Positions 48,482 through 61,529 of a stretch of 64,000 nucleotides of DNA are shown here, in pieces. The stretch lies in contig OZ257128.1 in assembly GCA_965278945.1 (NCBI GenBank), positions 2,386,623 through 2,450,622 on the forward strand, read 5' to 3'. The first letter of the stretch is position 1; every line of letters starts with the position of its first letter. This DNA is from Actinomycetes bacterium. Lineage in GTDB: Bacteria; Actinomycetota; Actinomycetes; S36-B12. The notes below the pieces were generated by a model, which had not been told where the DNA came from, ran no database searches, and saw nothing but the letters and a program-made list of their open reading frames with translations. The position numbers and the translations under genes were made by a program.

Positions 48482-48547
48482 GCCTTCCTACCTTCATCTC
48501 GTCCTTGCAAGCTCCCACGGCGAGCGTGGGAGCCATCGATCGACTCG

Positions 48548-48620
48548 CAGGGCCGGAGGGACTTGAACCCCCAACCGCCGGTTTTGGAGACCGGTGCTCT
48601 ACCAATTGAGCTACGACCCT
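48548..48620 (-). tRNA. tRNA-Trp (anticodon CCA)
   Basis: Hand-folded cloverleaf: acceptor AGGGTCG/CGGCCCT, D-arm GCTC-AATTGGTA-GAGC, anticodon arm CCGGT-CTCCAAA-ACCGG, T-arm GGGGG-TTCAAGT-CCCTC. 73 nt, CCA not encoded. Confidence 0.93.
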
Positions 48621-53014: not shown

Positions 53015-53088
53015 TGGTCTTCCTCTTTCTGATGATCTCGACAAGCGCTTGCCGAGCGTGTTGGTGATGCTGGTCGAACCGGCCTAAG

Positions 53089-53161
53089 TAGCGGAGGCCG
53101 GACTTGAACCGGCGACACAGCGATTATGAGCCGCTTGCTCTACCAACTGAGCTACCCCGCC
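53089..53161 (-). tRNA. tRNA-Met, elongator type (anticodon CAT)
   Basis: Hand-folded: GGCGGGG-TA-GCTC-AGTTGGTA-GAGC-A-AGCGG-CTCATAA-TCGCT-GTGTC-GCCGG-TTCAAGT-CCGGC-CTCCGCT-A. The anticodon stem lacks the three G:C pairs of initiator tRNA. Confidence 0.88.
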
Positions 53162-53187
53162 GCAATGAGGCGAACTGCACCTCATCG

Positions 53188-53260
53188 AGCCCCTTTACGG
53201 AATCGAACCGTAGACCTTCTCCTTACCATGGAGACGCTCTGCCGTCTGAGCTAAAGGGGC
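53188..53260 (-). tRNA. tRNA-Thr (anticodon GGT)
   Basis: Hand-folded: GCCCCTT-TA-GCTC-AGACGGCA-GAGC-G-TCTCC-ATGGTAA-GGAGA-AGGTC-TACGG-TTCGATT-CCGTA-AAGGGGC-T. Confidence 0.92.
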
Positions 53261-54362: not shown

Positions 54363-54370
54363 GCCACGCG

Positions 54371-54452
54371 TGGCGGGTGAAGGATTCGAACCTTCGAAGG
54401 CTAAGCCGGCGGATTTACAGTCCGCTCCCATTGGCCACTCGGGCAACCCGCC
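54371..54452 (-). tRNA. tRNA-Tyr (anticodon GTA), long variable arm
   Basis: Hand-folded: acceptor GGCGGGT/ACCCGCC, anticodon loop CTGTAAA, T-arm GAAGG-TTCGAAT-CCTTC. 82 nt. Confidence 0.9.
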
Positions 54453-54521
54453 ATGGTGCATCGAGAAGGATACACACGACGATTCGACCGACAGAATGGC
54501 GTCGTGACGCACGACTCGAGA

Positions 54522-56567
54522 ATGGATCCACGGCACGCGATCCTCTTCGAACCAGTGCCCATCGGTCCGAAGGTCCTGCCCAACCGGTTCTACCAGGTCC
54601 CGCACGCGTCAGGGTTCGGCTCGCGGCGACCGCAAGCCCAGGCAGCGTTCCGCGCGATCAAGGCTGAAGGCGGCTGGGGAGGCGTCTGCGTCGAGTACTC
54701 CCCCGTGTCGGCCGACACCGAGGAAGCTCCCTATATCGCTGCCGACCTTCGCGACCTCCGCGATGCACAGGCCCTGCGAGCGACCGTTGACGCCGTCCAT
54801 GGGCATGGTGCATTGGCGGGCGTCGAGTTGTTCCACGGCGGCGCGACCAGCAACAACGTCCTCGCCCGAATGCCCCGGATCGCGCCGAGTCAGTCGGGCT
54901 CGTCCGCGAAGTGGGGCTCGGTCCCCCGCTCGATGACGCTCGACGACATCGAGCGGGTTCAGCAGGACTTCGTCACTGCGGCACGCCATGCGCGCGATGT
55001 CGGATTCGACATCGTCTACGTCTACGGCGCTCATGGCTACCTGCTCACCCAGTTCCTGTCGACTGCCATGAACCAGCGAACCGATGCGTACGGGGGGACG
55101 CTCGGCAACCGTGCACGCTTTCACCTCGAGACTCTCGACCGCGTCCGTGCGGCGATCGGGGAAGACTGCGCGATCGCCACCCGAATCTGCATTGACGGCC
55201 GTGACGGTGTTCCCGGCATCCACCTGGACGACATGCTCGAGTTCGTCGCCATGGCCGATCCGCTCGTCGACCTGTTCGACGTCATCGTCGGATCGTGGCC
55301 GGAGGACTCGGGAACCTCGCGCTACTACGCCGAGGGTCACCAGCTGCCGTGGTCCAGCAGAGTGCGCGAGGCCACGATGAAGCCCATCGTCGGTGTCGGC
55401 CGTTACACGAATCCCGACCAGATGGCCCAGGTCATCCGCTCCGGAGCGTTCGACCTCATCGGTGCCGCGCGGCCGGCAATCGCCGACCCGTTCATCCCGC
55501 AGAAGATCGCGACCGGACGGCTGTCCGACATCAGGGAGTGCACCGGCGCGAACGTATGCATCCTGCGCGAGGAGGGCTTCGGCCAGATCGGCTGCATCCA
55601 GAACGCCACGGCTGGCGAGGAGTTCAGGCGCGGCTGGCATCCCGAGCAGTTCCCGCCCGCGATCGACCCGGACCGCGCCGTGCTCGTCGTGGGTGCCGGT
55701 CCCGCGGGCATGGAGTGCGCACTCGTTCTTGGCCGGCGCGGCTTCGAGGCCGTTCACCTGGTCGAGTCCGGCACCGAGATCGGCGGCCGGCTCACGTGGA
55801 CTCGGCGACTGCCGACGCTAGGAGAGTGGGGCCGCGTAACCGACTGGCGCGCAACACAGCTGGCCGCACTGCCCAATGTCGAGCTGATCACCGGACGCCG
55901 GCTGACGACCGACGACGTCCTGGACTACGGGGCGGCGATCGTGGTCATCGCGACCGGCAGCCACTGGTCTGGCGACGGAACCCAGCCCGGACGGACCGAG
56001 CCCCTGTCCGCGGCGCGGACCTTCCTCACGCCCGAATCGATCATGGCGGGCTCGCGGCCGACGGGGCGTTCGGTCGTCGTCTACGACTGCGACGGCTACT
56101 ACGTCGCGCCGGGCATCAGCGAACTGCTCGCGGACGAGGGGTTCGGTGTGCACCTCATTACCCCGCACCAGGTCGTGTCGCCAATGTCTGACGGGACCCT
56201 CGAAGGAAAGATGCTGCGCCAGCACCTGCACGACCGCGGGATCGCGATGACCACTGCCGTGACGTTGCACGAGTGGAGCAGCGGACGCGTGAGCGGCGTC
56301 GACCAGTTCGGCGACGCGTACGAGACGGAGTGCGACGACGTGGTCCTGGTCACGCATCAGGTCGTTGATGACGACCTGTATCAGGGGCTCACCGCCGACC
56401 CGGCGGCGCTCGCGGCAGCCGGAATCGACGCGGTCCACCTGATCGGGGATGCGTCATCGCCTCGGTGGATCTCCGAGGCGGTGTTCGACGGCCATCGCCT
56501 CGCCCGCGAGATCGACTCGCCACACCCGTCCATTCCGCTGGCCGTCCGGCGCGAGCCACCAACGTGA
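54522..56567 (+). CDS. Trimethylamine-dehydrogenase-family flavoprotein (OYE-like FMN domain plus NAD(P)/FAD-type domains)
   Basis: MDPRHAILFEPVPIGPKVLPNRFYQVPHASGFG...KAEGGWGGV closely parallels the TMADH/DMADH/histamine dehydrogenase N-terminus. IRECTGANVCILREEGFGQIGCIQNAT lies at the Fe-S site. VLVVGAGPAGMECA dinucleotide fold. ATG 54522. Confidence 0.8.
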   Translation: MDPRHAILFEPVPIGPKVLPNRFYQVPHASGFGSRRPQAQAAFRAIKAEGGWGGVCVEYSPVSADTEEAPYIAADLRDLRDAQALRATVDAVHGHGALAGVELFHGGATSNNVLARMPRIAPSQSGSSAKWGSVPRSMTLDDIERVQQDFVTAARHARDVGFDIVYVYGAHGYLLTQFLSTAMNQRTDAYGGTLGNRARFHLETLDRVRAAIGEDCAIATRICIDGRDGVPGIHLDDMLEFVAMADPLVDLFDVIVGSWPEDSGTSRYYAEGHQLPWSSRVREATMKPIVGVGRYTNPDQMAQVIRSGAFDLIGAARPAIADPFIPQKIATGRLSDIRECTGANVCILREEGFGQIGCIQNATAGEEFRRGWHPEQFPPAIDPDRAVLVVGAGPAGMECALVLGRRGFEAVHLVESGTEIGGRLTWTRRLPTLGEWGRVTDWRATQLAALPNVELITGRRLTTDDVLDYGAAIVVIATGSHWSGDGTQPGRTEPLSAARTFLTPESIMAGSRPTGRSVVVYDCDGYYVAPGISELLADEGFGVHLITPHQVVSPMSDGTLEGKMLRQHLHDRGIAMTTAVTLHEWSSGRVSGVDQFGDAYETECDDVVLVTHQVVDDDLYQGLTADPAALAAAGIDAVHLIGDASSPRWISEAVFDGHRLAREIDSPHPSIPLAVRREPPT

Positions 56568-56622
56568 ACGGTGCCTGACAGAATGTGCGCACGCATGAAT
56601 GCATCGCTCGCGAGGAGGACAC

Positions 56623-57114
56623 ATGGCTGACAGCAGTTTCGACATCGTCTCCAAGGTTGACCGGCAGGAGGCAGACAACGCGCTGAACCAGGCAGCCAAG
56701 GAGCTCGCGCAGCGCTTCGACTTCAAGAACACCGGCACGACGATCGAGTGGAAGGGCGAGCTCGGGGTCGAGATCACCTCGGGCACCGAGGAGCGCGCGA
56801 AGGCCGCGCTCGACGTGTTCCAGGAGAAGATCATCAAGCGCGGCCTGAGCCTGAAGTCGTTCGAGGCCGAGGATCCCCGCTCGTCGGGCAAGGAATACAA
56901 GATCACCGGCACGTTCAAGGCCGGTATCAGCCAGGAGCAGGCGAAGAAGATCGGCAAGCTCATCCGCGACGAGGGCCCCAAGACCGTCAAGACTCAGGTG
57001 ATGGGCGAGGAGCTCCGCGTCACGAGCAAGAGCCGCGACGACCTTCAGGCAGTGCAGGCGCTCGTGAAGGGCGCCGACCTCGACTTCGCGGTGCAGTTCG
57101 ACAACTACCGCTAA
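56623..57114 (+). CDS. yajQ: YajQ family (UPF0234) nucleotide/cyclic-di-GMP-binding protein
   Basis: [37 protein letters not shown]...VQFDNYR; ATG 56623 with GAGGAGGA upstream. Confidence 0.9.
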
Positions 57115-57125
57115 CTGTCGTCCGT

Positions 57126-57182
57126 CGACCTTGAGGTTCCGCCCACATTTCGGTCCCCGAAATGGGCGGAACCTCAAGGTCG
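57126..57182. repeat. Palindromic element copy 2 / bidirectional terminator between convergent yajQ and the nuoI-like gene (20-bp perfect stem, 2-nt bulge, 6 more bp, 3-nt loop)
   Basis: CGACCTTGAGGTTCCGCCCA(CA)TTTCGG-TCC-CCGAAATGGGCGGAACCTCAAGGTCG. Shares the core CGACCTTGAGGTT with 40-108. Confidence 0.8.
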
Positions 57183-57192
57183 CGGGACTGGG

Positions 57193-57528
57193 TTACGGGA
57201 GCCACTGCTCCAGACGGCTCATCGACTGGACCAGCTCGGCTCGCTGGACCGCGCTGTAGTCGAACTGCGGACTCCAGGCAAGGGCGTCGAACGGGCACAC
57301 GTCGACGCAGATCCCGCAATACATGCACAGGCCGTAGTCGATGGAGAACTCATCGAGAACGTTGACGGTGCGCGGCCGGCGAGCGCCCTCTTCGGTGACC
57401 TCCACCGTGTGGCTGTCGAGGGTTATGCACCAGGTGGGACATTCGCGCACGCAGAGCATGCACGACGTGCACGCGGACGCGATGAGCCCGATCACACCTC
57501 GCACCGGCGGGCTCGATTCCTCGCTCAT
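57193..57528 (-). CDS. NuoI-like 2x[4Fe-4S] ferredoxin-type protein
   Basis: CTSCMLCVRECP and CMYCGICVDVCP. Start is either ATG 57528 (ATGA overlap with the upstream stop) or ATG 57540. Confidence 0.8.
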   Translation of the reverse strand: MSEESSPPVRGVIGLIASACTSCMLCVRECPTWCITLDSHTVEVTEEGARRPRTVNVLDEFSIDYGLCMYCGICVDVCPFDALAWSPQFDYSAVQRAELVQSMSRLEQWLP

Positions 57529-57977
57529 GAGTCCAGCCATTCGTCAGGCACCCCGGCGGGACGTTGCCTGCGGCGCGCCGGGCTGCCCCCGGGTTCCGCC
57601 GTTCCAGGCCAGTCGACTGCGACGCGGGCGGCGAGCACGGCATCGTGGCGTAACGGCGGCCTGCCGAGAGTCGTGCGCAGGAGCAAGGGCCGGTCATCGC
57701 GAAGACCGACAAAGGTCAGGCCGAACATCTCGGACGTCTCGCGCTCGTGCCAGGAGGCACCTATATATAGCGTGCTGAGACTGTCGATCAGCGGATCGTC
57801 GGACGGGACGACGGCCCGGGCCAGGACCCGCTCCCCGGAGTCGGGGTTGAGCACGTGGGCGACGACCTCGGTGCTCGTCACGCGGTCGACTCCGGTGAGG
57901 AAGTCGAGATAAACAAAGCCCGTCGCGTGGCGCGTCGTCCACTCTGCGAGCCAGTCGCCCCTGTCGATGTCGATCAC
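57525..57977 (-). CDS. NuoC-like (complex I 30-kDa subunit family) protein
   Basis: FVYLDFLTGVD...SLSTLYIGASWHERETSEMFGLTFVG; ATGA overlap with the upstream gene. Confidence 0.8.
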   Translation of the reverse strand: MIDIDRGDWLAEWTTRHATGFVYLDFLTGVDRVTSTEVVAHVLNPDSGERVLARAVVPSDDPLIDSLSTLYIGASWHERETSEMFGLTFVGLRDDRPLLLRTTLGRPPLRHDAVLAARVAVDWPGTAEPGGSPARRRQRPAGVPDEWLDS

Positions 57978-58417
57978 GCCCTGTCCTCCCGCGTCATCGC
58001 CGACAGAGCAGCGACGAGGGCGTCCGGACGCGGGGGGCAGCCCGGGACGTACGTCGAGACGTCAAGCAACTGGTCGATCCCCTTGGTGACCGTGGGTGCA
58101 TCCCAGTACGGGCCGCCGGTGCTCGCGCAGGCGCCGAACGCGACGATGCGGGCCGAGGAGCCCAGGTCCTCGTGGATGCGGACCACGGCCGGGGCGAGCG
58201 CGTCGGTCACAGTCCCGGAGACCAGGAGGATCGTCGACGACGCAGCATCGTTGCTGGCGCCCTCCGCCACGAGCAGCCCTGTCCGGATTGCGGCCTCGAC
58301 CTCCATCGAGCAGCACGCCAGTCCGACGTTCGCCAGCACTACCCGGACCTCCGGGTCGCCCGCGAGGCGAAACGCCTGGACGGTCGCTGGGCGTGCCGCT
58401 GGGCTGACCGGGAGCAT
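57974..58417 (-). CDS. NuoB-like (complex I 20-kDa / hydrogenase small-subunit family) Fe-S protein
   Basis: GLACCSMEVEAA, VAFGACASTGGPYWD, YVPGCPPRPDAL (four Cys of an N2-type cluster site). ATG 58417 chosen; the open frame continues to TTG 58489. Confidence 0.78.
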   Translation of the reverse strand: MLPVSPAARPATVQAFRLAGDPEVRVVLANVGLACCSMEVEAAIRTGLLVAEGASNDAASSTILLVSGTVTDALAPAVVRIHEDLGSSARIVAFGACASTGGPYWDAPTVTKGIDQLLDVSTYVPGCPPRPDALVAALSAMTREDRA

Positions 58418-58597
58418 GCGGCCGAGCCTACGCGCCGTATCTGTAACCGGATCGTGACCAAAGTTACTTAGGACACACTGCACCCTCAACGCGGCGGAAC
58501 CGCCAAATCAGGAGCACAATGGTGCGGGCCGCATATAGCGGTTCGCGGCGCGGGAGCGCCGACCAGACTCCGAGACATCCCGGACCAAGGGGAGACC

Positions 58598-60460
58598 GTG
58601 CCCAAGCAGCTCGTCCAACTGAATAGGGTCGTCATTCGCTTCGCCGGGGACTCTGGCGATGGCATGCAGTTGACCGGCGACCGGTTCACCTCCGAGACCG
58701 CGGGACTGGGCAACGACCTGGTGACCCTGCCCGACTTCCCCGCCGAGATCCGCGCACCAGCGGGCACCGTGAACGGCGTATCGGGCTACCAACTGGCGTT
58801 TGCCGATCACGAGATCACCACTCCGGGCGATGCCCCCAACGTGCTGGTCGCGATGAACCCCGCCGCGCTGAAGGCGAACATCAAGGACCTGCCTCGCGGC
58901 GCGGACCTGATCGTCAATACCGACGAGTTCACCAAGCGCGCCTGGGAGAAGGTCGGCTTCGCGGTCAACCCGCTCGAGGACGGCTCCCTTGACGCCTACA
59001 ACGTGCATGCGATCGCCCTCACCTCGCAGACCGTCGAGGCACTGAAGGGCTTCGAGCTGAGCAAGAAGGACGCAGAGCGCTCGAAGAACATGTACGCGCT
59101 GGGTCTGCTGTCGTGGCTGTACTCACGCGGCGCCGAGGGCACCCGTGCGTTCCTGGAGAAGAAGTTCGGGTCCAAGCCCGCGATTCTGGCCGCCAACCTG
59201 GCCGCGTTCGAGGCGGGTTGGTCGTTCGGTGAGACCACGGAGTCGTTCTCGGTGCAGTACGAGGTCGCGCCGGCGAAAATGGCCGCGGGCACGTACCGGA
59301 ACATCTCCGGCAACCCTGCGCTCGCGTACGGATTGGTCGCGGCTGGCGAGTTGTCCGGCATGCCGTTGTTCTTGGGCAGCTACCCGATCACTCCCGCTTC
59401 CGACATCCTCCACGAGCTCAGCAAGCAGAAGAAGTTCGGCGTCGTGACCTTCCAGGCCGAGGACGAGATTGCCGGCATCGCTGCGGCAGTCGGCGCTTCC
59501 TACGGCGGTGCGCTCGGCCTGACGACGACATCGGGTCCCGGCGTTGCCCTCAAGTCCGAGGCCATCGGCCTGGCGGTCTCGCTGGAACTGCCGCTCCTGA
59601 TCGTCGACGTGCAGCGAGGCGGACCGTCGACCGGACTGCCGACGAAGACCGAGCAGTCGGACCTGCTGCAGGCGATGTTCGGTCGTAACGGCGAGTCACC
59701 CGTGCCGATCATCGCTCCGCAGTCGCCGTCGGACTGCTTCTGGGCGGCCATCGAGGCGGCGCGGATCGCGATCGAGTACCGCACGCCGGTCTTCATCCTC
59801 TCCGACGGCTACATCGCCAACGGGTCCGAGCCCTGGCTCGTGCCCGACGCGTCGGCGCTGCCGAGTATCAACCCGAACTTCGCCACCGCCCCCAACCACA
59901 CGGCGGCCGACGGAACCGAGGAGTTCTGGCCCTATCTTCGCGATCCGGAGACTCTCGCGCGTGCGTGGGCAGTGCCGGGAACGGCCGGGCTCGAGCACCG
60001 CATCGGCGGCCTGGAGAAGTCCGACGGGCCAGGTGCCATCTCCTACGACCCGGAGAACCACGACCGCATGGTGCGACTGCGCCAGGCGAAGATCGACGGC
60101 ATCGCCGACTCGCTCCCGCTGATGGAGGTCGACGACCCCGACGGTGACGCTCGTGTTCTCGTGCTCGGGTGGGGTTCCACCTACGGTCCGATCGGCGCCG
60201 CATGCGAGATCACCCGGCGCACCGGCGCCAAGGTGGCCCAGGCACATCTGCGCCACCTCAACCCCTTCCCGAGGAACCTCGGCGAGGTGCTGCACTCCTA
60301 CGACAAGGTGATCGTCCCGGAGATGAACCTCGGCCAGCTCACGATGCTGCTGCGCGCGAAATACCTCGTGGACATCGAAGGAATCAATCAAGTACGGGGC
60401 ATGCCATTCAAGTCCACCGAACTGGTGGCCGCCATCTCCACTGCACTCGAAAGCCTGTGA
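58598..60460 (+). CDS. korA: 2-oxoglutarate/2-oxoacid:ferredoxin oxidoreductase subunit alpha
   Basis: GTG 58598 with AAGGGGAG upstream; VVIRFAGDSGDGMQLTGDRFT, GSYPITPASDILHEL. Confidence 0.92.
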   Translation: MPKQLVQLNRVVIRFAGDSGDGMQLTGDRFTSETAGLGNDLVTLPDFPAEIRAPAGTVNGVSGYQLAFADHEITTPGDAPNVLVAMNPAALKANIKDLPRGADLIVNTDEFTKRAWEKVGFAVNPLEDGSLDAYNVHAIALTSQTVEALKGFELSKKDAERSKNMYALGLLSWLYSRGAEGTRAFLEKKFGSKPAILAANLAAFEAGWSFGETTESFSVQYEVAPAKMAAGTYRNISGNPALAYGLVAAGELSGMPLFLGSYPITPASDILHELSKQKKFGVVTFQAEDEIAGIAAAVGASYGGALGLTTTSGPGVALKSEAIGLAVSLELPLLIVDVQRGGPSTGLPTKTEQSDLLQAMFGRNGESPVPIIAPQSPSDCFWAAIEAARIAIEYRTPVFILSDGYIANGSEPWLVPDASALPSINPNFATAPNHTAADGTEEFWPYLRDPETLARAWAVPGTAGLEHRIGGLEKSDGPGAISYDPENHDRMVRLRQAKIDGIADSLPLMEVDDPDGDARVLVLGWGSTYGPIGAACEITRRTGAKVAQAHLRHLNPFPRNLGEVLHSYDKVIVPEMNLGQLTMLLRAKYLVDIEGINQVRGMPFKSTELVAAISTALESL

Positions 60461-60467
60461 GGCTGAC

Positions 60468-61529
60468 ATGACCGATCTGCTTACGTCCCTGCCGTCTTTG
60501 ACCCTGGTCCCCAAGGCCGACGGTCCGCAGAGCGCCAAGGACTTCAAGTCCGACCAGGAGGTCCGCTGGTGCCCCGGGTGCGGTGACTACGCGATCCTCT
60601 CCGCCGTACAGAGCTTCCTTCCCGAGCTCGGACTGAAGCGCGAGAACATCGTGTTCGTCTCCGGCATCGGCTGCTCGTCACGCTTCCCGTACTACATGAA
60701 CACGTACGGCATGCACTCGATCCACGGTCGCGCGCCGGCCATCGCCACCGGCCTCGCCGTCACTCGCCCTGACCTGTCGGTGTGGGTCATCACCGGAGAC
60801 GGCGACTCGCTGTCTATCGGCGGCAACCACCTCATTCATGCGCTGCGCCGCAACGTCAACCTCAAGATCCTGATGTTCAACAACCGGATCTACGGCCTGA
60901 CCAAGGGCCAGTACTCCCCCACCTCCGAGCAGGGCAAGATCACGAAGTCGACCCCGCAGGGATCACTGGACTACTCGTTCAATCCGGTGTCCCTCGCGCT
61001 GGGCGCCGAGGCGACATTCGTCGCCCGCACCATCGACTCGGACCGCAAGCACTTGACCGAGGTCCTGCGCCAGGCCGCCTCGCATGAGGGCACCGCGCTC
61101 ATCGAGATCTACCAGAACTGCAACATCTTCAATGACGGCGCCTTCGAGCCGCTGAAGGACAGCGACACCCGCGACGACGTCATGATCCGGCTGCAGCACG
61201 GGGAGCCGATCCGCTTCGGTCGCGACAACGAGAAGGGCGTCATACGCAGGCCAGACGGCCACATCACCGTTGCCGAGGTTGCCGAGGTCGGCGAGGACGC
61301 GATCATTCGACACGACGCACACGCCAAGGATCCGGGCCTGGCCTTCGCGCTGTCGCGCCTGGCGAACCCACGCACCCTGATGAACACCCCGATCGGCGTG
61401 TTCCGAGACATCGAGCGTCCGTCCTACGACCGACTCGTCCGCGAGCAGGTCGCCGAGGTCTCCGCGCGCGAGGGTGCTGGAGATCTGCAGTCGCTGCTCA
61501 CGGGCAGCGACACCTGGAACGTGTCCTGA
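60468..61529 (+). CDS. korB: 2-oxoglutarate/2-oxoacid:ferredoxin oxidoreductase subunit beta (TPP-binding)
   Basis: WCPGCGDYAIL, GIGCSSRFPYY, GDGDSLSIGGNHLIHALRRN (TPP motif). Confidence 0.92.
   Translation: MTDLLTSLPSLTLVPKADGPQSAKDFKSDQEVRWCPGCGDYAILSAVQSFLPELGLKRENIVFVSGIGCSSRFPYYMNTYGMHSIHGRAPAIATGLAVTRPDLSVWVITGDGDSLSIGGNHLIHALRRNVNLKILMFNNRIYGLTKGQYSPTSEQGKITKSTPQGSLDYSFNPVSLALGAEATFVARTIDSDRKHLTEVLRQAASHEGTALIEIYQNCNIFNDGAFEPLKDSDTRDDVMIRLQHGEPIRFGRDNEKGVIRRPDGHITVAEVAEVGEDAIIRHDAHAKDPGLAFALSRLANPRTLMNTPIGVFRDIERPSYDRLVREQVAEVSAREGAGDLQSLLTGSDTWNVS

Follow-up and report, generated by a model that had tools for sequence, protein, structure and literature searches.

We analyzed a 64,000-nucleotide stretch of DNA (the window) from an Actinomycetes bacterium of the S36-B12 lineage (assembly GCA_965278945.1, contig OZ257128.1, positions 2,386,623 to 2,450,622). 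The window is a ribosomal-protein/rpoBC region with a GC content of 65.8%. At positions 57193-58489, it contains three translationally coupled open reading frames (ORFs) on the minus strand, the products of which resemble the complex I subunits NuoB, NuoC and NuoI. We refer to these products as NuoB', NuoC' and NuoI', and to the three genes together as the trio. The trio is flanked on one side by the divergent korAB genes and on the other side by a strong hairpin and then the convergent yajQ gene (Table 1). The GC content at the codon positions is coding-like (third-position GC content, GC3, 0.81-0.84), and all motifs quoted for the three ORFs in a preliminary description of this locus were found in the translations. 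The trio had been described as a compact operon without genes for NuoD or membrane subunits, and in fact no NuoD, NuoH or antiporter-like gene is present between korA and yajQ. The overlap of the NuoC' and NuoI' genes is ATGA (57525-57528) as described, whereas that of the NuoB' and NuoC' genes (57974-57977) is GTGA and not ATGA. In the following text, loci of relatives are given as L-numbers (L003, L042 and so on); L025 is the locus from Streptomyces sp. cg35.

Table 1. Positions of the trio and of the features around it in the window. Scores are in bits, followed by the cut-off where one is given.
Feature	Position	Strand	Description and evidence
NuoB' (NuoB-like)	57974..58417	-	147 aa from ATG 58417; PF01058, PDB, AlphaFold2 (AF2)/Foldseek
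NuoC' (NuoC-like)	57525..57977	-	150 aa; GTG start overlapping the TGA stop of NuoB' (GTGA); PF00329
NuoI' (NuoI-like)	57193..57528	-	111 aa; ATG start overlapping the stop of NuoC' (ATGA); Fer4 families
korA, alpha subunit of two-subunit 2-oxoacid:acceptor oxidoreductase	58598..60460	+	POR, POR_N and PFOR_II; TIGR03710 655 vs 482.75
korB, beta subunit (thiamine pyrophosphate-binding)	60468..61529	+	PF02775 111; TIGR02177 254.4 vs 261.9; PRK11866 256.8
Long, nearly perfect inverted repeat	57126..57182	.	Between convergent NuoI' and yajQ; folding
Divergent intergenic region NuoB'-korA	58418..58597	.	Conserved only in the window, L003 and L086
yajQ (DUF520, cyclic-di-GMP-binding family)	56599..57114	+	PF04461 190; NF003819 191.6 vs 146

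NuoB' carries the motifs GLACCSMEV, AFGACASTGGPYW and VPGCPPRP. Its size had been given as up to 171 aa, which corresponds to a longer ORF from TTG 58489. This is almost certainly too long, and 147 aa is likely. Because the relatives are 126-149 aa and the starts of L003 and L086 align with ATG 58417, this ATG is most likely the start codon; the relatives give no support to the TTG start. NuoB' scored 65 bits with PF01058 (Oxidored_q6; cut-off 27), and its best PDB matches in a phmmer search were NdhK, Nqo6 and NuoB (E 3.5e-20). The AF2 model (predicted TM score, pTM, 0.81) matched PSST/NuoB/NdhK chains in Foldseek with a probability of 1.00 and a TMq of ~0.6, and in this model NuoB' has the flavodoxin-like NuoB fold. 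The four N2-type ligands (C35, C36, C97 and C127, including the tandem CC) are invariant in alignments of 10 and 66 sequences. NuoB' does not reach the curated NuoB cut-offs (TIGR01957, 86.2 vs 142.7; PRK06411, 88.2 vs 116), and its matches to these models begin at model positions 21 and 38, respectively.

NuoC', for which the described size of 150 aa stands, carries the motif ASWHERETSEMFGL and scored 75.1 bits with PF00329 (Complex1_30kDa; cut-off 22.5). Its best PDB sequence matches were NdhJ and NuoC. The score with the NuoC family model TIGR01961 was below the cut-off (55.8 vs 122.45) and covered residues 17-112 only. In the AF2 model (pTM 0.74), the predicted local distance difference test value is >90 for residues 1-105 and ~50-59 for residues 110-150, and Foldseek matched the model to Nqo5/NdhJ (TMq ~0.68, root mean square deviation ~2 Å). 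Thus, NuoC' consists of a 30-kDa-subunit core (residues 1 to ~105) and a C-terminal tail, WPG..EPG..RRRxRPxGVPxxW. The tail lies beyond the NuoC family model and is conserved in the alignments of every lineage, yet it is predicted to be disordered. In the lineage-wide alignments, the tail reads WPG..EPG..RRRxRPPGVPxxW.

NuoI' possesses two CxxCxxCxxxCP motifs, CTSCMLCVRECP and CMYCGICVDVCP, which correspond to two [4Fe-4S] clusters (N6a and N6b), and its eight Cys residues are all invariant in the alignment. With an alternative start at ATG 57540, its length would be 115 aa; however, 111 aa is most likely. NuoI' scored 47.5 bits with Fer4 (cut-off 21.1) and also matched 4Fe-4S dicluster families in Pfam. 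With the curated NuoI model TIGR01971, it scored 67.8 (cut-off 113.05) from model position 42. Its best PDB matches were polyferredoxin FwdF chains, followed by NuoI/TYKY. In Nanopelagicales (L088:10495-10812 and L091:10495-10809), the 3' ends of the NuoI' gene and of convergent yajQ share ~15 nt, and in L091 and L092 NuoI' was missed by the gene caller and a spurious 103-aa ORF was called instead. In one sub-clade (L004:11233-11709, L087:11325-11801 and L090:10799-11287), a fourth ORF of 158-162 aa, with faint or no TPR matches, overlaps the end of the NuoI' gene as if it were translationally coupled to it; this ORF is not present in the window.

All 12 Fe-S Cys ligands of the trio (four in NuoB' and eight in NuoI') are therefore present. 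Although each of the three proteins is below the curated NCBIfam cut-offs, the NuoB, NuoC and NuoI models still rank first for the respective proteins. Together with Pfam scores above the gathering thresholds and the PDB sequence matches, this supports the original NuoB/C/I assignments. In folds (as modeled; TM ~0.6-0.7) and cluster ligands, the trio resembles the Q-module (NuoB, NuoC, NuoD and NuoI) of complex I and of cyanobacterial/chloroplast NDH-1, and among PDB sequences NuoB' and NuoC' match NdhK and NdhJ of the ferredoxin-dependent NDH-1 best. Unlike the Q-module and complex I, the trio operon has neither NuoD nor a membrane arm (NuoA, H, J, K, L, M and N), and its proteins are shortened. 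Group 4 [NiFe] hydrogenases (Mbh, Hyc/FHL and Mbs) have homologous small-subunit and ferredoxin-like families with similarly small subunits. An affiliation with this group was considered and rejected: the PDB scores were 52 bits for MbhJ and 44 bits for the HycG type, as compared with 76 bits for NdhK, and there are no large or membrane subunits.

We scanned one genome per GTDB species with the NuoC' alignment and found at least 585 relatives, which are actinobacterial without exception. A Rosetta-stone search among 342 NuoC' relatives found no fusion protein. For the survey of loci, the window proteins were mapped by tblastn onto the best 80 species-representative loci, and representative ORFs were analyzed with Pfam. 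The trio had been called an orphan, and this does not hold: in most relatives, the B, C and I genes are inside a 10-gene operon, nuoA-B-C-H-I-J-K-L-M-N, which has no NuoD, NuoE, NuoF or NuoG and is placed in a common korBA…htpX/yajQ frame. Three architectures were observed. In Streptomyces, Actinomadura and related genera, korB-korA is followed by genes for a response regulator and two sensor kinases, nuoA-B-C-H-I-J-K-L-M-N and mscL. In metagenome-assembled genomes (MAGs) such as L071, L064, L036 and others, korBA is directly divergent from nuoA-B-C-H-I-J-K-L-M-N, which is followed by htpX and yajQ. In the third architecture, korBA is divergent from the trio only, which is followed by htpX and/or yajQ; this is found in the window, L003-L007, L011, L024, L042, L086, L087, L090 and GCA_041443025.1. 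In these trio-only loci, a relaxed tblastn search found no remnants of nuoA, nuoH, nuoK or nuoM between korA and yajQ. Because B, C and I of the relatives are embedded in the 10-gene operon, the trio in the window is a reduction of a membrane complex. The preliminary description had reasoned that relatives always located next to nuoD/nuoH-like genes, or carrying frameshifts, would mark the trio as a decayed remnant. Relatives do lie beside nuoH-like genes; however, this is not always so, and they are neither decayed nor frameshifted.

The 10-gene form is the "nuo2" operon of Streptomyces (nuoA2, B2, H2-N2; SCO4599-SCO4608), the annotation of which is given in genome and transcriptome papers. 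Streptomyces transcriptome papers describe nuo2 as an extra complex I copy without the N-module, with nuoD2 at a separate locus (PMC3765725, PMC8388888), and Nuo2 subunits have been detected by proteomics (PMC9739823). We found no functional study of nuo2 in the literature searched. Nor did we find any description of a stand-alone B+C+I module there, in agreement with the earlier statement that such a module is not known to be characterized. The B, C and I proteins of Streptomyces nuo2 are orthologous to those of the window (identities of 40-45% for NuoB', 45-47% for NuoC' and 53-57% for NuoI'), and the two systems share the korAB-linked position, the operon without NuoD/E/F/G, the NuoC tail motif and identical Cys ligands. 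In contrast, the window has no nuoA, nuoH or nuoJ-N, and its NuoB' and NuoI' lack the N-terminal docking segments, whereas Streptomyces has an AbrC-type two-kinase system between korA and nuoA2 and a 444-aa NuoC2. This NuoC2 is encoded at L025:9923-11257, between nuoB2 and nuoH2, and consists of the 30-kDa domain (PF00329, 108 bits) and a low-complexity tail of ~290 aa, without a NuoD domain. Because the published nuo2 lists (A2, B2, D2 and H2-N2) omit a "C2", NuoC2 seems to have been previously unrecognized. At L025:5171-8791, between korA and nuoA2, a response regulator and two tandem "Sensor"+HisKA_3 histidine kinases are encoded. They match the atypical AbrC1/C2/C3 system (SCO4598-4596), which has been reported to be divergent from SCO4599-4608. 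Thus, nuo2 may be under AbrC control.

To place the reductions, a KorA+KorB tree (917 columns, 200 bootstraps) was used. In this tree, two trio loci group with full-operon loci: L042 with L036 in 200/200 replicates (89% KorAB identity), and L024 with Actinomadura in 199/200. The window clade forms a separate group (200/200), and monophyly of the trio-only loci was obtained in 0/200 replicates. Because trio loci pair with full-operon loci in this way, the tree indicates that reduction to B, C and I occurred independently at least three times. Each reduction to exactly these genes requires that nuoA, nuoH and nuoJ-N be deleted separately. In a neighbor-joining tree of B+C+I, the trio-only lineages are placed on long basal branches, away from their KorAB sisters. 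Since pairwise identities put the B, C and I proteins of L042 closest to those of the full-operon L036 (69%, 66% and 73%, respectively), we read these long branches as an acceleration of the evolutionary rate. For example, the number of nonsynonymous substitutions per site (dN) of NuoB' to L071 is 0.29 for L042 as compared with 0.19 for L036, and 0.275 for L024 as compared with 0.127 for L010. By these relative rates, it is above all NuoB' that evolves faster once the membrane arm has been lost.

The trio-only proteins shed the membrane-docking N-termini of NuoB and NuoI each time and kept the cluster ligands. The segment ahead of the CC (..LNWGRxxSLWxFxFGLACC) is present in the full-operon NuoB2 and absent from the window and all trio-only proteins, and the NuoB segment LNWGRRYSLWVFNF is likewise found in full-operon proteins and missing from trio-only proteins. 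NuoI' has no canonical N-terminus: it aligns only from residue 56 of canonical NuoI, while full-operon NuoI2 aligns from residue 9. The segment GLAKGLAVTLRTM..QYPDV is shared by NuoI2 and canonical NuoI and is missing from trio-only proteins. In complex I structures, the missing segments lie at the interface with NuoH/NuoA and the membrane. Therefore, their loss fits detachment from the membrane arm.

Every copy of the trio examined is intact; the apparent loss in L091 is the gene-calling miss described above. Between the window and L003 (85% nucleotide identity), the ratios of nonsynonymous to synonymous substitution (dN/dS, Nei-Gojobori method) are 0.157, 0.158 and 0.110 for B', C' and I', respectively. 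In the same comparison, the ratio is 0.167 for MurB, 0.130 for a major facilitator superfamily (MFS) gene, 0.106 for a HadA-like gene and 0.01-0.02 for KorA, KorB and YajQ. Between Nanopelagicales L088 and L091 (52-53% GC), dN/dS is ≤0.08 for all three proteins, with synonymous sites saturated, and dN of NuoI' is 0.064 as compared with 0.062 for canonical NuoI. Thus, the view that the trio is intact and without decay holds, the ORFs being whole in every lineage, and the trio is under purifying selection. In summary of these comparisons, the window lineage deleted the genes for NuoA, NuoH and NuoJ-N and retained B, C and I, which are translationally coupled, constrained and relieved of their N-termini. 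Decay of the operon with a non-functional leftover not yet purged is disfavoured and very improbable: the trio is only 73-86% identical to that of L003 in amino acids, as compared with 97-100% for KorA, KorB, EamA and YajQ, and it combines the NuoB' acceleration with sub-threshold NCBIfam scores, but intact ORFs with 12 invariant ligands, the low dN/dS values in two lineages, the retention of the identical three genes in at least three independent reductions and persistence of the trio in a more streamlined Nanopelagicales genome of 53% GC all argue against it.

The partner of the trio is suggested by its position. The proposed linkage to korAB proved to be conserved: korA is upstream in 68 of the 80 loci, and in the remaining 12 the upstream sequence (<5.1 kb) is too short to tell. 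No ferredoxin (delta) or Fer4 domain was found by Pfam in KorA or KorB. Therefore, KorAB has no delta subunit with two clusters and must rely on an external acceptor. For the mycobacterial 2-oxoglutarate:ferredoxin oxidoreductase (KOR), Baughn et al. (2009) could not identify the physiological acceptor (PMC2773412), and higher levels of KorA and Nuo2 subunits have been reported for S. coelicolor than for S. lividans. In Nanopelagicales, no functional study of KOR was found in the literature searched. Because a delta-less KorAB adjoins the trio and the acceptor of actinobacterial KOR has escaped identification, KorAB as electron donor to NuoI' is supported. NuoI' resembles the delta subunit PorD/KorD in being a small protein with two [4Fe-4S] clusters, here beside a KorAB without delta domain, and it matches the delta models weakly, below the cut-offs (TIGR02179, 38.8 vs 60.05; NF042987 (OGOR_delta), 30.9 vs 125). 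Unlike PorD/KorD, it scores higher with the NuoI models and is accompanied by NuoB' and NuoC', for which 2-oxoacid:ferredoxin oxidoreductases have no equivalent.

The trio is probably a soluble electron-transfer unit, and such a relay most plausibly serves the delta-less KorAB. We assign a probability of roughly 0.5 to the explanation that the trio is the retained NuoB2-NuoC2-NuoI2 core of nuo2, which is tied to korAB and acts as a soluble or peripheral electron wire with three [4Fe-4S] clusters. In this mechanism, B', C' and I' would form a complex with N6a and N6b on NuoI' and N2 on NuoB'; this N6a-N6b-N2 chain is predicted from general knowledge of complex I. NuoC' would scaffold this complex. 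KorAB would be the most likely electron donor, NuoI' would take the role of the delta subunit or ferredoxin, and electrons would pass from KorAB to NuoI', NuoB' and then a further acceptor. The conserved disordered tail of NuoC' is a candidate docking peptide. An extended form of this idea is more tentative and, in our estimation, rather unlikely: the trio would be an autonomous soluble carrier that docks on KorAB via the NuoC' tail, and the ancestral 10-gene Nuo2 would pump protons without NuoD, with the oxidation of 2-oxoglutarate as the driving force.

Several points weigh against the soluble wire on KorAB. Normally, NuoD is clamped by NuoC, and the N2 cluster is located where NuoB and NuoD meet. 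For this reason, a stable B-C-I complex without NuoD has, to our knowledge, no precedent. The evolutionary rate of the trio is several times that of KorAB. Between L042 and L036, B and C show an apparent dN/dS of 0.7-0.8, as compared with a compressed KorA baseline of 0.24, although in very-high-GC3 pairs (L042/L036 and L024/L010) dS is compressed and dN/dS is unreliable, so that only relative rates can be used. Furthermore, the earlier conclusion that no NuoD can belong to the trio holds for the operon, but a trans-encoded large subunit is possible because a separate nuoD2 has been reported in Streptomyces (PMC8388888, PMC3765725). Finally, an abundant Nanopelagicales lineage that was found separately (L088/L089 and L091/L092) keeps the trio with EamA directly upstream and without korAB at the locus; canonical nuoH-N and a polyprenyl synthase gene are located a short distance upstream of the trio here. 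Because this lineage keeps a constrained trio without korAB at the locus, KorAB cannot be an obligatory neighbor, and the partnership, which we infer from synteny, is weakened.

The main rival is a large subunit supplied in trans. The trio would work with a NuoD-type subunit encoded elsewhere (canonical NuoD or "nuoD2") as a Q-module-like unit, which would be either soluble or mounted on the membrane arm of canonical complex I as an alternative front end for electron input. The known binding of NuoC to NuoD and the position of N2, both mentioned above, speak for this idea, as do the separate nuoD2 locus of Streptomyces and the canonical nuoH/L-M-N genes, which are 1-6 kb from the trio in many trio-only genomes. 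However, we found no NuoD-like gene adjoining the trio or nuo2 at the ~90 loci examined. The N-terminal segments absent from trio-only NuoB' and NuoI' are those common to the canonical and full-operon proteins, and the window clade has other sequences in place of the NuoB loop "..DFIRLGVIPFAPxPRQAD" and of the NuoC motif "PDGFEGHPLRKDF". In addition, the window and L003 have no canonical nuo genes at the syntenic position, which holds the MFS gene and an isocitrate/isopropylmalate-dehydrogenase-like gene. We consider supply in trans unlikely.

Another explanation is that the trio is a general soluble multi-cluster ferredoxin or serves another partner, and that its adjacency to korAB is merely inherited nuo2 synteny. 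The Nanopelagicales loci, where the trio is intact and strongly constrained without korAB, favor this explanation. So does the history of yajQ. In full-operon loci, yajQ is ~7 kb downstream, past nuoN and htpX; judging from gene order, its adjacency to the trio in the window is demonstrably a by-product of the deletion of nuoJ-N (and htpX) with no functional link, so neighbors can be historical accidents. The korA-nuoB' intergenic sequence points in the same direction: its alignment shows conservation only among the closest relatives and reveals no common operator. Against this, the korAB-nuo2 adjacency survives in Streptomyces, Streptosporangiales, Mycobacteriales-type MAGs and the window clade, in three architectures and despite numerous rearrangements. 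We consider this explanation quite unlikely and prefer the relay on KorAB.

The features around the trio were also analyzed. The hairpin between NuoI' and yajQ, noted previously, is real (ΔG -57.9 kcal/mol, z -8.2; 0/200 shuffles fold as well) and is a candidate for a bidirectional terminator without a T-tract. A T-run-dependent consensus terminator scan did not list it because it has no T-run. The NuoB'-korA intergenic region presumably holds the promoters of both genes; a consensus promoter scan found no sigma-70 match in it. Directly upstream of yajQ and in the same direction, the window encodes (54453-56567, plus strand) a 704-aa flavoenzyme of the 2,4-dienoyl-CoA reductase/NADH-oxidase type, with Oxidored_FMN (Old Yellow Enzyme, OYE, -like) and Pyr_redox_2 domains. 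The pairing with yajQ is also found in L004, L005, L011, L086 and L090 but not in L003, and this enzyme could be a redox neighbor of the trio or just syntenic. PAS-GGDEF or MASE3-PAS-GGDEF-EAL proteins recur beside the locus, next to yajQ (L011:11296-12942, L087:11875-13483, L004:3296-5794 and L005:2166-4196). NCBIfam names the YajQ family cyclic-di-GMP-binding, and this may be a neighborhood of cyclic-di-GMP signaling. In the long-read MAG contigs of L004 (7885-9803) and L005 (7949-9826), korA is in two or three pieces, and the EamA and OYE-like genes are likewise split in L005 and L087; indels in the assemblies, and not pseudogene formation, are the most likely cause. On the minus strand of the window, four tRNA genes (Trp-CCA, Met-CAT, Thr-GGT and Tyr-GTA; 48547-48620, 53088-53260 and 54370-54452) are scattered among rpmG, hadA/hadB-like dehydratase genes, murB, secE and nusG, a gene order typical of actinobacteria.

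Complex I is described as modular, yet the NuoB/NuoD pair is treated as inseparable. An operon without NuoD, together with repeated loss of the membrane arm in which B, C and I are kept, points to a self-sufficient Fe-S unit. The near-universal position beside korAB makes this unit a testable candidate for the acceptor of the actinobacterial 2-oxoglutarate:ferredoxin oxidoreductase (PMC2773412). It also suggests a function for the nuo2 operon of Streptomyces, and a genetically tractable host, S. coelicolor (SCO4594-4608), is at hand. If the trio docks on KorAB, the long-missing physiological acceptor of actinobacterial KOR would be identified, and if the trio is autonomous, the Q-module of complex I would be able to function without its large subunit.

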